Positions 11,488 through 63,452 of a DNA stretch of 64,000 nt are shown here, one piece after another. The DNA comes from Escherichia phage EcWhh-1. A program made the translations under genes and the position numbers. The stretch lies in the sequence record MH791409.1. One strand, given 5' to 3'. Under the pieces are notes generated by a model. That model saw nothing but the letters and a program-made list of their open reading frames with translations. It was not told the DNA's origin and made no database searches. Within the stretch, counting starts at the first letter, position 1, and each line of letters begins with the position of its first letter.

Positions 11488-11688
11488 TCATGATTTATCC
11501 CCATAGATATCACGCATAATCCTAAGGGCCTCGCGTTCTAATTTCTTTTCGCGTTCGTCACGGATGCCTTTAAGAATCCATTCCTCTGATTCACGTTTCA
11601 TTTCTGCATTAGCTTGGTCTAACCAACCGTCATCAAGATAATCACCGGGACGGTCTAGCCAATCTTTAAGCCATGATAAAGGTTTCAT
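11488..11688 (-). CDS. hypothetical protein
   Basis: track ORF 66 aa, coupled to upstream ORF. Confidence 0.4.
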
Positions 11689-12023
11689 TAATCACACGAG
11701 CCGGACGATGAGTCACAGCTTCCTGAGTCAGAATAAGACGAATCGCCGGTCCAAGAACTAACGGCAGCCGCTACTACAATAGGAGTGGTATCAATATAAT
11801 TTTGCCTTTGCGCTCGCTCGTCTTTTAATTTTTCTAAACGGGCTTTTAATTCGTCGGCATTTAAGCTCGAAGCGTGAGACCCAACATTGCCTGCTTTTTC
11901 AGGCTGACGGATAACTTCTTCCATCATACCGTCGCCTACATAAACATATTCCTTCGGGCCTGAGATAGGAACTACACCTTCGCCAGGAGTGGTCTTGAAA
12001 AAATTCTTAAGCCACTGAATCAT
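11688..12023 (-). CDS. hypothetical protein with Ser/Cys-rich C-terminal tail
   Basis: 111 aa ending ...SSWTGDSSYSDSGSCDSSSGSCD. Confidence 0.45.
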   Translation of the reverse strand: MIQWLKNFFKTTPGEGVVPISGPKEYVYVGDGMMEEVIRQPEKAGNVGSHASSLNADELKARLEKLKDERAQRQNYIDTTPIVVAAAVSSWTGDSSYSDSGSCDSSSGSCD

Positions 12024-60183: not shown

Positions 60184-61143
60184 TTATTTTTCGAAAGGAC
60201 GAATTAAATGATGGTTATCTTGGAATCGTTTGATGTAGTCACTTTCACCTAAAGTCTTGTACATATTAACCACAGCTTGGTAGTTTTCCCATGCATAAGT
60301 GCGGAACCAACCTGAAGTGATTGAGGTACACACTTTCTCAAGAGCCATATAGAAACTTAATGATGGTGAAATATTGAAGTCATTAGGAACCTGTGAACGT
60401 TCTAGTGCCAGGACACAAGTTTCTTCATATACACCAGCCAGTTTAATAGCTTCAGGCAAAGCCTCGAACTTCTCACGAGAGGTCATGACTTCAGAACCTT
60501 CCTTCATATAAAAGGTATATGCAGGGCGCCCTGCCAATGCCACTGCTTCATGGATAGAGTCGTGGTCTAGCGTATAAATGGTATCGTTAAAGAACGATGA
60601 TTTGTTTACATCCAATTTAGGGTGCTTGTAGCTCAACGTTTCTTTTTGACGTTGCAGCATAATTTCCTGGAGTTCTTCGTTCAGGGTGATACCTTTATTA
60701 CGAAGGTATTTGATGTGGGACATAGTTTTCAGGAAGAAAGGATTATTCTTCAGGAAACGATGAGAGGTTTTGATAGCCAGACAGATATCAGGCGTGGCCC
60801 AATAAAAGCCTGTCATACGGTCCTTTTTAATATGATTTTCAGCATATTTTAGGAGACGATAACTTGAGGTGAAATCTTCGTCTTGAAGCTCACCGGTGAT
60901 TTCTCGTACGTTAGTCAGAGCACGAACGATATATGCTTCAAAATAGGTTTCTTTACCGTTGTACATGCATTTAAAAGCCTGGACATCAGGGTTATCCACA
61001 GGAACATGGGCGCCGAACATCCGAGCTTTAAAGTGGTTCCATGAGCCTTGGTCGGCAATGAAATCCCAATCAGAATTTTCGATATACTTACTTTCAATCA
61101 GACCAGCGTGGTGCAGTGCACGAGAACCAATAACTAACATCAT
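60184..61143 (-). CDS. hypothetical protein
   Basis: track ORF 319 aa; ATG with GAGGAA Shine-Dalgarno. Confidence 0.45.
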   Translation of the reverse strand: MMLVIGSRALHHAGLIESKYIENSDWDFIADQGSWNHFKARMFGAHVPVDNPDVQAFKCMYNGKETYFEAYIVRALTNVREITGELQDEDFTSSYRLLKYAENHIKKDRMTGFYWATPDICLAIKTSHRFLKNNPFFLKTMSHIKYLRNKGITLNEELQEIMLQRQKETLSYKHPKLDVNKSSFFNDTIYTLDHDSIHEAVALAGRPAYTFYMKEGSEVMTSREKFEALPEAIKLAGVYEETCVLALERSQVPNDFNISPSLSFYMALEKVCTSITSGWFRTYAWENYQAVVNMYKTLGESDYIKRFQDNHHLIRPFEK

Positions 61144-61156
61144 AATATTTTCCTCA

Positions 61157-61324
61157 TTAGTAGAGACGAGTTACTTCATATTTACCTAGTTCAGATTTTT
61201 TTGCTTCAACACGCGTGGCAGCGAGATTAGCGGCCTCTAGTGAAGAAAATTGAAGCACTTGTGAAGTATTCTGCCTTACGCCACCTTGTGGGTGAGTAAC
61301 AAAAACAATAAGAACATTATACAT
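61157..61324 (-). CDS. small hypothetical protein (55 aa), not in ORF track
   Basis: MYNVLIVFVTHPQGGVRQNTSQVLQFSSLEAANLAATRVEAKKSELGKYEVTRLY; GAGGAA Shine-Dalgarno. Confidence 0.35.
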   Translation of the reverse strand: MYNVLIVFVTHPQGGVRQNTSQVLQFSSLEAANLAATRVEAKKSELGKYEVTRLY

Positions 61325-61345
61325 AATATTTTCCTCAGAGTAAAC

Positions 61346-61585
61346 TTAAATTTCGGCAACGTAAGTATTATGCAATTCCCACATATCATCGGAATTACTC
61401 TCAACGATAGGAATTATCTCATTAGAAATTTCTTCTGCATAAGGGTCATTGATACAGTGGGCATCTTCAAAACGAACACCGTAATCAGACTTCTTATAGG
61501 CAAAGCCATAAATCTTTTTAAACTTGGCACGAGTAATGCGTACCGGTTCATTAGACTTATCGGACATCGGAGCGTAATACCACAT
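61346..61585 (-). CDS. hypothetical protein
   Basis: track ORF 79 aa. Confidence 0.4.
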   Translation of the reverse strand: MWYYAPMSDKSNEPVRITRAKFKKIYGFAYKKSDYGVRFEDAHCINDPYAEEISNEIIPIVESNSDDMWELHNTYVAEI

Positions 61586-61611
61586 ATGTTCTCCTCATGT
61601 TTGTGTAGGGT

Positions 61612-61641
61612 AATAGTAACACGTATTTTTAGAGTTGTACA
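61612..61641 (-). promoter_or_regulatory. early-type promoter variant (TGTACA / TACTAT)
   Basis: minus strand GTGATGTACAACTCTAAAAATACGTGTTACTATTACCCTACACAAAC. Confidence 0.3.
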
Positions 61642-61979
61642 TCACTTCTGCAATATTCTAAAAATAATTTATCGTTGTCTACCGTATCCCAACGACGCCA
61701 AGATGGATTCCAGACCAGAGCGTTGTCACCACAATCATTGAGCTTAAAATGGTCGTAGTACATAGCTATACGTCTAGTTTCGTCACCAGAGAACCCCAGT
61801 ATAGGCTCACCATGGGTGTGATACATATGATGGTGCATTGAGAGGTCGCATTTGTAAAACATCTCACGTTTACCACGAACGAACAAGAAGGCTTGCCCAT
61901 TCATATAGAATTCTTTGTCTGTTTTCAAAAGATATTTGAATACCGAATCTTTATGCATAAATCCTCCTACCACATCCAT
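61629..61979 (-). CDS. hypothetical His-rich protein
   Basis: track ORF 116 aa; start probably internal. Confidence 0.35.
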   Translation of the reverse strand: MDVVGGFMHKDSVFKYLLKTDKEFYMNGQAFLFVRGKREMFYKCDLSMHHHMYHTHGEPILGFSGDETRRIAMYYDHFKLNDCGDNALVWNPSWRRWDTVDNDKLFLEYCRSDVQL

Positions 61980-61988
61980 GTGGTTAAA

Positions 61989-62216
61989 TTATTTTCCTAA
62001 CGAAACACGAGTAGGTTTTTTACCAAAATAGTCTTCGTAAGAACCATCTAAACGACCTGCTTTAGACCGACAATACGAATCATACTTTTTGTAATAAGTC
62101 ATCTCAGTATTATAACGTGGGTGTCTATCGGCCATAATAATACTTAGTGGCCAACCTTTGGCATAATCGCGAAGACCGTTTATTTTACGAATGTATCGTT
62201 TTTTCAATTTTAGCAT
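61989..62216 (-). CDS. hypothetical basic protein
   Basis: track ORF 75 aa. Confidence 0.4.
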   Translation of the reverse strand: MLKLKKRYIRKINGLRDYAKGWPLSIIMADRHPRYNTEMTYYKKYDSYCRSKAGRLDGSYEDYFGKKPTRVSLGK

Positions 62217-62434
62217 GAGCTTGGGTACCAGATTTCACCATCGGCACGAGCAACGAAGGTGCGACCAGCTTCTTCACCATAACAAGAGCTATTCAGCCAA
62301 TCTTCGAGACGAACTTCACCGTCATAATCGTCGAGCTCAACACCAAAATCCTGAGCAGAAGCCATATCTTTTACTTTCTTATACAGTGCAGCCAGTTCAA
62401 GTGCCGCTTTTTCTAATTCATTAATAGTAGTCAT
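62210..62434 (-). CDS. Cys-tail small protein family, member 5
   Basis: start moved to MTTINELEKAALELAALYKK (ATG with AAGGTGA Shine-Dalgarno); ends ...GEIWYPSSC; also has internal DWLNSSC. Confidence 0.5.
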   Translation of the reverse strand: MTTINELEKAALELAALYKKVKDMASAQDFGVELDDYDGEVRLEDWLNSSCYGEEAGRTFVARADGEIWYPSSC

Positions 62435-62444
62435 TTTTATCACC

Positions 62445-62654
62445 TTAGCAAGACATAGAGGAGCTAAACCAGAAACCTTCACCTTCAGGAATACCGTAAT
62501 CATCACGGACCCATTCGTAATCATCATATTCCGGACTAGAAGCTGGAATATATTCTTCGCCACCAGCGTGGAAGTGCTGACCTGTTTCGTCAGCCACGGA
62601 CTGGCCTTTACGTACTAATTCACGGATTTGTTTTTCAATTTCATCAATAGTCAT
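62445..62654 (-). CDS. Cys-tail small protein family, member 4
   Basis: 69 aa; ends ...GEGFWFSSSMSC. Confidence 0.5.
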   Translation of the reverse strand: MTIDEIEKQIRELVRKGQSVADETGQHFHAGGEEYIPASSPEYDDYEWVRDDYGIPEGEGFWFSSSMSC

Positions 62655-62663
62655 TTTATTTCC

Positions 62664-62861
62664 TTAGCATTCGTAAGAGGAGGACACCCAGGAGCCACCT
62701 GTAATTGTAATACAGCCATTGTAAATCGTGATATGACGGTCCAGATGGTTTTCACCATCGATATAGATATCAGCTTCTTCGCGTTCTTCTTTACAAATCT
62801 GGATAACGTTTTCAATAGCTGCGGCTGCAGTACGGATTGCACAATCTAGTTCACGAGACAT
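62664..62861 (-). CDS. Cys-tail small protein family, member 3
   Basis: 65 aa; ends ...TGGSWVSSSYEC. Confidence 0.5.
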   Translation of the reverse strand: MSRELDCAIRTAAAAIENVIQICKEEREEADIYIDGENHLDRHITIYNGCITITGGSWVSSSYEC

Positions 62862-62870
62862 AATAATTCC

Positions 62871-63152
62871 TTAACATTCAGAAGAAGAGGACACCCAACC
62901 ACCATTTTCTAGGCTGGTAGTGTAATCATGTTGGTTTACAATAGCGTACTGAGCTTCACCGTATTCTTCCCAGTGGGCAAGGTCGGCTTTCAGGGCGCCA
63001 GGAGAATAATAGTCACCGCCCATACCGCGAGCAGGGTATATATTAAAATGAGTCTCATATTTGTTAGCAATTTCCTCAGCACGTCGAATAGCTTTATGGA
63101 TATCATTTACTGCTTTGGCCAGCTCTTTATTTTTACGGTAATCATTCATCAT
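62871..63152 (-). CDS. Cys-tail small protein family, member 2
   Basis: 93 aa; ends ...ENGGWVSSSSEC. Confidence 0.5.
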   Translation of the reverse strand: MMNDYRKNKELAKAVNDIHKAIRRAEEIANKYETHFNIYPARGMGGDYYSPGALKADLAHWEEYGEAQYAIVNQHDYTTSLENGGWVSSSSEC

Positions 63153-63161
63153 AGTGTTTCC

Positions 63162-63452
63162 TTAGCACATTGCTGAAGAGGAGACCCAAGCACCAACTGT
63201 AACGACACCATTTTCAACTTCACCGCCGTTGTTTTCAATTTCATCTTTAAACCACTGGGAGCATTCATAACCGACAGGATAATATGTACGGCCTGAACCA
63301 TAATCACCGGTGCCGAATTGGATACCATACTTATCGGCAATAGCTTCGCATTCATGTTCGATGGCATCTACTTTATTCAGAAGAGCATAGATAGCCTTTT
63401 CTGCAGATTTCTCGTCATTGTGTTCTGGGATTTCAATTTCAATTTTATTCAT
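63162..63452 (-). CDS. Cys-tail small protein family, member 1
   Basis: 96 aa; ends ...TVGAWVSSSAMC. Confidence 0.5.
   Translation of the reverse strand: MNKIEIEIPEHNDEKSAEKAIYALLNKVDAIEHECEAIADKYGIQFGTGDYGSGRTYYPVGYECSQWFKDEIENNGGEVENGVVTVGAWVSSSAMC

Follow-up and report, generated by a model that had tools for sequence, protein, structure and literature searches.

What holds together five neighbouring genes whose small products have almost nothing in common except their last few residues? This question is raised by a tandem array at positions 62210..63452 of a 64,000-nucleotide (nt) stretch of DNA from Escherichia phage EcWhh-1 (sequence record MH791409.1), the whole of which is referred to here as the window. 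An earlier reading of this DNA (the original prediction) had described the array as five minus-strand open reading frames (ORFs) with near-identical tails and a terminal Cys, a description confirmed by the ORFs themselves, by their alignment and by a hidden Markov model (HMM) of the family. Our results indicate that the five genes very probably belong with a nucleotidyltransferase gene as one module, and that the tail is probably what this predicted enzyme recognises or modifies. The array comprises the following features (aa, amino acids; pI, isoelectric point):

63162..63452, minus strand: tail-family paralogue 1, 96 aa, pI 4.35, ending in TVGAWVSSSAMC, tail codons 63188..63165.
62871..63152, minus strand: tail-family paralogue 2, 93 aa, ending in ENGGWVSSSSEC, tail codons 62897..62874.
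62664..62861, minus strand: tail-family paralogue 3, 65 aa, ending in TGGSWVSSSYEC, tail codons 62690..62667.
62445..62654, minus strand: tail-family paralogue 4, 69 aa, ending in GEGFWFSSSMSC, tail codons 62471..62448.
62210..62434, minus strand: tail-family paralogue 5, 74 aa from the ATG at 62434, with the short tail EIWYPSSC, codons 62230..62213.
62299..62282, minus strand: internal second copy of the motif in paralogue 5 (DWLNSSC; W-L-N-S-S-C), seen in the sequence and the alignment.

The genes are separated by gaps of 9, 9, 9 and 10 nt, and each closes with TG(C/T) TAA. GG(A/T) follows directly after four of the five stops, and in the TAAGGA or TAAGGT so formed the upstream stop merges into the Shine-Dalgarno sequence of the following gene, which bears out the spacing of about 10 nt and the separate Shine-Dalgarno sequences noted previously. 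At its upstream border the block shares the sequence ATGA with an e.4-like membrane-protein gene, whose stop and the ATG of paralogue 1 overlap there; at the other border, the stop of paralogue 5 overlaps the ATG of the next gene. Judged from this layout, the whole array block looks translationally coupled.

The C-termini of paralogues 1-5 read GAWVSSSAMC, GGWVSSSSEC, GSWVSSSYEC, GFWFSSSMSC and EIWYPSSC, and invariance across the five aligned proteins is confined to the initiator Met, the Trp, two Ser and the terminal Cys. In the body, the other paralogues are 19-29% identical to paralogue 1. Paralogues 1, 2 and 4 carry a hairpin motif (GxG); in 3 and 5 the body has diverged, most of all in paralogue 3, which lacks this motif. 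The helix and the tail are found in all five. All are acidic (pI 4.2-5.5, net charge -4 to -11). The family HMM matched paralogues 1 to 5 with E values of 1.5e-20, 7.9e-24, 2.6e-3, 3.4e-16 and 2.9e-3, respectively, and nothing further in the 64-kb window. The tail pattern of the five array proteins is not due to chance.

A family profile search of 1.84 billion representative proteins (E <= 1e-3, clusters at 50% identity) placed at least 317 clusters in the tail family, all of 65-136 aa and nearly all aligned through their own last residue. The alignment and HMM search proposed with the original prediction have thus been carried out, and they yielded free-standing phage proteins rather than fragments of a larger protein. 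PHROGs contains two entries for the family, phrog_899 and phrog_4882, both of unknown function. Paralogues 1, 2, 4 and 5 match the former (E 9.2e-24, 3.4e-20, 2.2e-13 and 7.9e-10), and paralogue 3 the latter (E 1.9e-36, against 0.038 for phrog_899). Scans of the five proteins and 150 family members against Pfam, NCBIfam and PADLOC gave chance-level matches only, the commonest being DUF4279 (8 of the 150 members). A literature search found nothing mentioning DUF7275, DUF7277, PF23940, PF23942 or the PHROG numbers, and nothing relevant was found in the literature on phage nucleotidyltransferases, AMPylation or a C-terminal cysteine. This is a tail family without described function, and the array proteins are true paralogues within a phage-restricted family.

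Among 186 collected sequences the tail follows the consensus [E/G]-G-W-x-[S/A/P]-S-S-x-x-C at the C-terminus, with the Trp conserved in 175/184 proteins, Ser(-4) in 178/184, Ser(-3) in 173/184 and the Cys in 184/186; in five proteins one extra residue stands beyond the terminal Cys. Ahead of the tail, the body consists of a conserved helix (A..IADE.G), a hairpin (F.F..AYGMGGTYYP) and an acidic linker. Body identity drops to about 20%, against a near-invariant tail. The original prediction had spoken of a variable leader followed by a conserved core, a description that fits only loosely: the conservation of the tail stands, but conserved stretches are found in the body as well. The motif can also be repeated: two or more W.[SNTDP]S units occur in 40/186 proteins, the extra W-x-S-S-(x)-C units lying in the acidic linker. 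A single Cys is present in 103/186 proteins and two to four in 82/186, often in repeated ...SS(G)C units. On this sequence record, the tail looks like a conserved functional element of the family. Some longer members, of 155-173 aa (L055:7203-7721, L064:6595-7062, L073:7146-7667), have an additional conserved N-terminal domain without a Pfam match, followed by the usual helix and the W-x-SS-x-C end; this domain probably explains the 221-position length of the phrog_899 profile.

Orthologues of paralogue 1 in other T4-like phages are 52-95% identical to it, and the W-x-P-S-S-C tail type of paralogue 5 is found again in other phages. Since the paralogue types of the array recur in other genera, the duplications must be old and the copies non-redundant; the five genes are proposed to represent one lineage-specific expansion of the family.

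To see how the tail is presented, an AlphaFold2 model of paralogue 2 (93 aa) built from a 53-sequence alignment can be consulted. It has a mean predicted local distance difference test score (pLDDT) of 90.4 and a compact alpha/beta fold, composed of a helix (residues 9-32, in agreement with the helical N-terminus predicted earlier), a hairpin (35-49), a second helix (51-64) and a strand (84-88, GGWVS). The final residues are less confident (block from residue 91, mean pLDDT 52).

The second component of the module lies downstream on the same strand and starts 1,067 nt past the last stop of the array:

60184..61143, minus strand: partner gene for a 319-aa protein with DUF7277 (residues 2-101, Pfam E 1.1e-26) and DUF7275 (residues 120-305, E 5.8e-77).

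In an AlphaFold2 model of this protein, built from a 119-sequence alignment (pLDDT 92.3, predicted template modelling score 0.86), the N-terminal domain is a Pol-beta nucleotidyltransferase (NTase) core. G6-S7 is located where a strand passes into a helix, the following strand bears D25-x-D27, and E69 is found on a strand further along; of these residues, G6, D25 and D27 do not vary in the 119 sequences, whereas S7 and E69 are conserved in at least 90%. The model thus predicts the hallmarks of the Pol-beta superfamily (hG[GS], [DE]h[DE]h, a third carboxylate and the NTase fold), and from its residues the enzyme looks active. Structure comparison of the model listed the MenT1 toxin (10.2), ANT(2'') (8.9), TglT/MenT3 (8.7), MenT4 (7.9), JHP933 (7.8), LnuA (7.4) and the Megavirus poly(A) polymerase (7.0), and MenT1 was also ranked first by Foldseek. 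The enzyme profile found no match among PDB sequences at E <= 10. Against Pfam at E <= 0.1 the enzyme matched DUF7277 and DUF7275 only, with DUF1814 and PF10127 unmatched, and there was no match in PADLOC or NCBIfam.

The enzyme was found by tBLASTN in 733 of 50,697 phage records, among them T4-like phages of Escherichia, Klebsiella, Enterobacter, Acinetobacter and Aeromonas, Phapecoctavirus, Pseudomonas phages and jumbo phages. Among 100,044 prokaryotic species (one genome each) it occurred in just five contigs, all of metagenome-assembled genomes, and three of these carry tail proteins upstream. The enzyme/small-protein module is therefore essentially phage-restricted.

The linkage of the two components was apparent in the first distant loci, a 310-kb jumbo-phage contig with a six-member array and a 143-kb T4-like contig with a three-member array, both arrays being placed directly upstream of a DUF7277+DUF7275 protein of about 300 aa. 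When loci were sampled by the enzyme, at least one family member (E <= 1e-3) was present in 69 of 80 viral loci, always on the strand of the enzyme and, with one exception, within about 3 kb upstream; six further loci contain tail-bearing ORFs missed by the HMM (some with the extra N-terminal domain), which brings the total to about 75 of 80. Sampling by the small proteins (query, a 16-sequence subset with AYGMGGT) gave the enzyme downstream in 21 of 22 viral loci, the exception being a contig that ends 200 nt past the gene. Database look-ups of family members showed the same arrangement in all five cases (26 of 27 altogether). Finally, same-strand ORFs of at least 50 aa within 5 kb were clustered for 82 loci representing 20 enzyme clades (60% identity): members of the tail family turned up in 19 of the 20 clades, against five for the next most frequent neighbour, which indicates that the module has exactly two components. 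The earlier statement that no modifying enzyme is evident nearby therefore has to be revised, as the NTase encoded 1 kb downstream is a conserved candidate and the only gene that travels with the family.

The number of tail-protein copies per enzyme locus ranges from 0 to 6 (mode 2). In the loci examined a tail protein was never found without the enzyme. The enzyme stands without a detectable upstream tail protein at L028 (Enterobacter phage CC31), L062, L063, L082 and L066, the last with an enzyme gene split into 55-aa and 209-aa ORFs. This asymmetry indicates that the dependence runs from the small protein to the enzyme. Two observations concern the surroundings of the module: the 310-kb contig with the six-member array (L003:13214-18770) also encodes an HD_4 (RelA/SpoT-type) protein and the PrkA / DUF444 / SpoVR trio, which is normally a bacterial stress operon, and in T4-like phages the module lies a few kb from a tRNA cluster (L001:11560-11793).

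Short enzymes (DUF7277+DUF7275, 252-266 aa) are encoded by Gordonia, Streptomyces and Mycobacterium phages and by Vibrio phage nt-1, at the following loci:

L087:4600-5800: Smoothie.
L088:4633-5311: TunaTartare.
L089:4609-5704: Mycobacterium prophage prophi86-1.
L090:3705-4001: nt-1.

The tail family is absent from these four loci. The short enzymes are instead flanked by another small family, arranged in tandem arrays of two or three paralogues with the motif ..RYFRRNGWY.SYDGG.YDG.TEEV.P..KTITVY., which has no Pfam entry and proved unrelated to the tail family by profile comparison. One invariant element, G-aromatic-x-x-Ser, is common to both partner families. The pairing of one NTase with an array of small paralogues thus appears, from gene content, to recur with an unrelated partner family. 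Comparison of 23 long-form enzymes (with one mismatch tolerated) and the four short forms gave 25 positions identical throughout, including GS, DxD, K125, S127-H128, K139, H194-D195..H198, E240-E241 and E248-R249. Invariance restricted to the long forms, whose partners are Cys-tailed, is seen at 16 positions, including R129, R165, H174, P175, C272, S277 and R281. Cys272 (signature KVCTSITSGW) is replaced by Ile in all four short forms, a pattern that may reflect a Cys-Cys or metal link with the terminal Cys of the partner. In the Streptomyces phage TunaTartare the gene of the distant homologue (gp209) is adjoined by that of an RNA ligase, gp208 (L088:3162-3821), and in Gordonia phage Smoothie the enzyme gene is near a tRNA gene cluster (L087:5850-8066); this proximity hints at an RNA or tRNA connection of the enzyme.

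What, then, could the tail do? We tentatively propose that it engages the active site of the enzyme, most likely as an acceptor for nucleotidylylation of Ser. The analysis establishes the family with its tail, selection on the amino acids of that tail, the predicted folds of both proteins, intact catalytic motifs in the enzyme and a synteny that is directional and nearly obligate; contact between tail and enzyme, nucleotidyl transfer to Ser and the biological targets are inferred. The proposal is suggested by the fact that the relatives of the enzyme all move a nucleoside monophosphate (NMP) onto hydroxyl groups, and that there are precedents for nucleotidylylation of a partner protein by a Pol-beta enzyme (MntA-HepT, GlnE, GlnD). 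It also takes into account that (i) the invariant residues lie in or just past the strand leading to the low-confidence tail, in a motif that can be repeated within a protein, (ii) several old paralogues per enzyme fit a scheme of one enzyme with many substrates, and (iii) the small proteins never occur without the enzyme, which is itself sometimes alone. The original prediction had considered a recognition tag or modified tail; this part is favoured here and is probably right in kind, with a nucleotidyltransferase in place of a lanthipeptide synthetase.

According to this scheme, the array and the enzyme would be co-expressed early in infection, and the conserved fold of each small protein would dock onto the enzyme. 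The exposed tail past the Trp strand (S-S-S-x-x-C, with its free carboxylate) would then enter the catalytic cleft, where the invariant Ser three residues after the Trp would accept the nucleotidyl group (O-NMPylation, possibly with more than one nucleotide), the terminal Cys and carboxylate being anchored by the subfamily-specific Cys272, His174 and Arg129/165/281. The old paralogues would represent distinct small effectors, all switched by one enzyme.

Several points weigh against this proposal. To our knowledge, such enzymes use Tyr rather than Ser as acceptor when they modify proteins; the closest relatives of solved structure work on tRNA 3' ends or on antibiotics and not on proteins, and MntA and GlnE are absent from the top structural matches of the enzyme model. 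The Trp is part of a predicted beta-strand, which leaves about five residues able to reach the active site. In CC31 and one other clade (L062) the enzyme is intact in the absence of a tail protein, and another substrate or function is needed there. In the window the array and the enzyme are separated by four unrelated small ORFs, and the covariation of Cys272 amounts to a single phylogenetic split and should be treated as a lead. As a distinctly improbable extension, nucleotidylylation of the tail Ser could be the first step of a new maturation chemistry. The O-nucleotidyl leaving group might yield dehydroalanine, with attack by the terminal Cys giving a C-terminal lanthionine-type ring without any Lan enzyme; alternatively, Ser-NMP might prime template-independent extension, producing protein-linked oligonucleotide decoys against host immunity.

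An alternative that we consider unlikely, though not far-fetched, is that the small proteins are antitoxin-like inhibitors: acidic proteins that would fill the electropositive cleft of a MenT-like NTase extending tRNA 3' ends, mimicking nucleic acid, with the tail as a pseudo-substrate plug, and would keep the enzyme off until needed. MenT toxins extend tRNA 3' ends with nucleotides, and MenT1 is blocked by MenA1, a 68-aa product of a short upstream ORF (PMC7450476, PMC10435456). The phage module resembles such a pair in its gene order (small protein first, same strand, often adjacent), in the MenT fold match of the enzyme and in the strong acidity of the small proteins (mean net charge -7.9 for the 186 proteins); moreover, MenT-family toxins pair with unrelated antitoxin families, and two partner families exist here. 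However, a stoichiometric inhibitor would not need up to six divergent paralogues kept for long per enzyme gene, and a toxin left unneutralised would be expected to disappear from the phages that have the enzyme alone. Comparison with MenAT1 of Mycobacterium tuberculosis, and more broadly with DUF1814/AbiEii, reveals further differences. The phage enzyme falls outside Pfam DUF1814, has a canonical D-x-D in place of the S/T-x-D of MenT1/MenT3, is about 120 residues longer and possesses a large conserved C-terminal domain. Its partner shows no likeness to MenA1 in sequence or fold, being an alpha/beta protein that ends in an invariant Cys tail and comes in 1-6 paralogues, whereas MenA1 consists of a long and a short helix in a V shape. 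MenAT1 is chromosomal; the module described here is phage-borne, and its enzyme survives without the partner in some phages.

It is also conceivable, but quite unlikely, that the small proteins serve as adaptor or specificity subunits, whose tail and fold would dock on the NTase, leaving the variable acidic linkers to bind varied host or phage targets (proteins or RNAs) and so steering one enzyme to several substrates. The asymmetric dependence on the enzyme, the several old and non-redundant paralogues per enzyme, the contrast between variable linker and invariant tail and the unrelated second family arrayed beside the short enzymes would all fit such a role. Yet the variable regions are short low-complexity acidic linkers without recognisable binding domains, and two invariant Ser with a terminal Cys exceed the apparent needs of a docking peptide.

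A metal-binding or redox tail that acts independently of the enzyme, with the Cys binding metal or forming intermolecular disulfides in homo- or hetero-oligomers and the linkage to the NTase reflecting co-regulation only, is improbable. The essentially invariant Cys, the proteins with several Cys in repeated units and the presence of several paralogues, which could form hetero-oligomers, agree with it. On the other hand, more than half of the collected proteins (the 103 of 186 mentioned above) have a single Cys, the equal invariance of the Trp and of the Ser pair is left unexplained, stable disulfides are unlikely in cytoplasmic proteins without a signal peptide, and same-strand adjacency to one enzyme in 19 of 20 clades, when nothing else nearby is conserved, is hard to attribute to co-regulation alone.

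The original prediction had likened the array to precursors of ribosomally synthesized and post-translationally modified peptides (RiPPs) of the lanthipeptide type, in which Ser would be dehydrated and Cys would form a thioether ring by means of dedicated enzymes before the peptide is released. We regard this as very improbable. The i/i+3 spacing of Ser(-3) and Cys(0), which occurs in small lanthionine or aminovinyl-cysteine (AviCys) rings, and the several small products per enzyme are indeed RiPP-like, and Nif11-domain matches were obtained for 3 of 150 members (best E 0.044), at chance level. Nevertheless, no LanB/C/M/KC/L, LanD, radical-SAM protein, dehydratase, cyclase, protease or transporter/exporter is conserved at the 82 loci; the tested neighbours in the window are without such Pfam domains, the whole window not having been scanned for Lan domains. 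No precursor family in Pfam or NCBIfam was matched above chance, and the spacing itself varies (SSSxxC in four paralogues, SSC in paralogue 5). Arrays such as the prochlorosins with ProcM likewise combine several divergent small products per enzyme with a Ser/Cys element. In contrast to these, the phage products are predicted to be folded (pLDDT 90) and bear their element at the extreme C-terminus behind a conserved body, with no leader/core boundary, cleavage site or RiPP enzyme.

There is hardly any chance that the tail is not a protein feature at all: a translational-coupling or other RNA signal (UCC/UCU pairing with the next Shine-Dalgarno) could be suspected from the TAA followed by GGA/GGT and from the mostly UCN Ser codons of the window, but it was rejected by codon usage, since in 112 distinct tails Ser(-4) and Ser(-3) are drawn from all six Ser codons and the Cys from both TGC and TGT with the amino acids fixed, which points to selection on the amino acid, and since the tail is kept in single-copy members directly followed by the NTase gene; the other variant, frameshifted fragments of a single gene, was rejected because each ORF has its own start and Shine-Dalgarno and free-standing homologues of 65-136 aa fill 317 clusters.

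Nucleotidylylation of the tail Ser would place the phage module beside HepT-MntA (type VII), GlnE and GlnD, with which it shares the proposed principle that a minimal NTase moves NMP to a hydroxyl of a genetically linked protein, switching its activity. MntA, GlnE and GlnD modify Tyr on the HEPN RNase, glutamine synthetase or PII; the candidate acceptor in the phage is a Ser in the C-terminal tail of a small acidic protein without a HEPN motif. Identity to ANT(2'')/AadB and LnuA is only 7-9% at the sequence level, and the phage enzyme differs further in possessing DUF7275 and in having an obligate neighbour, the small protein; nothing about a lytic phage would lead one to expect an antibiotic as substrate. 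RlaP (PF10127) is likewise a phage-borne Pol-beta NTase defined by its gene neighbourhood, and an RNA ligase is found beside TunaTartare gp209. This candidate, prompted by that ligase, was rejected: the phage enzyme belongs to a different Pfam family, without a PF10127 match, and its conserved neighbour is the small-protein array, no ligase being conserved.

The window stems from a JS98-like T4-type coliphage (Dhakavirus), and the array segment is 96% identical to phage SHP1, 95% to IME281 and AnYang and 92% to JS98. This segment is situated in the early region, flanked by e.2-like and e.4-like genes. The family had not been recognised from T4, and rightly so, as the syntenic e.2-e.4 region of T4 contains no tail-family genes; T4 e.2 and e.3 were tried as members and rejected (motif absent, no family-HMM match). 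Other features of the window are:

61157-62216, minus strand: four small ORFs between the array and the enzyme gene (75, 116, 79 and 55 aa; phrog_7065, 9796, 3723 and 20278, function unknown).
11688..12023, minus strand: 111-aa protein ending in SGSCDSSSGSCD, Pfam DUF7206 (E 2.4e-32) / phrog_2031.

None of the four intervening ORFs is among the neighbour families that clustering placed in at least three enzyme clades. A promoter/terminator scan gave nothing exceeding shuffled controls, and no terminator was predicted between the array and the enzyme gene. The protein at 11688..12023 had been mentioned together with the array for its Ser/Cys-rich end. This end is present, but the protein belongs to a different family and has no family-HMM match.

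To conclude, the analysis ties an anonymous tandem array to an enzyme with a clear predicted catalytic site, in a module widespread in large lytic phages. Once the small ORFs and the DUF7277/DUF7275 protein are treated as a unit, about six anonymous genes in each genome become one system that can be tested, with a motif to mutate; enzyme-only phages of the CC31 type are natural variants useful for comparison. Should the tail prove to be nucleotidylylated, the module would represent a protein modification specific to phages and directed at a Ser of a C-terminal tag, in which a single enzyme acts on a whole family of small effectors. Should the small proteins rather hold a MenT-like tRNA-modifying enzyme in check, the module would count as a relative, carried by phages, of an abortive-infection toxin and would serve host takeover. 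Either outcome bears on the manipulation of host translation or immunity by large lytic phages, many of which are therapeutic candidates.

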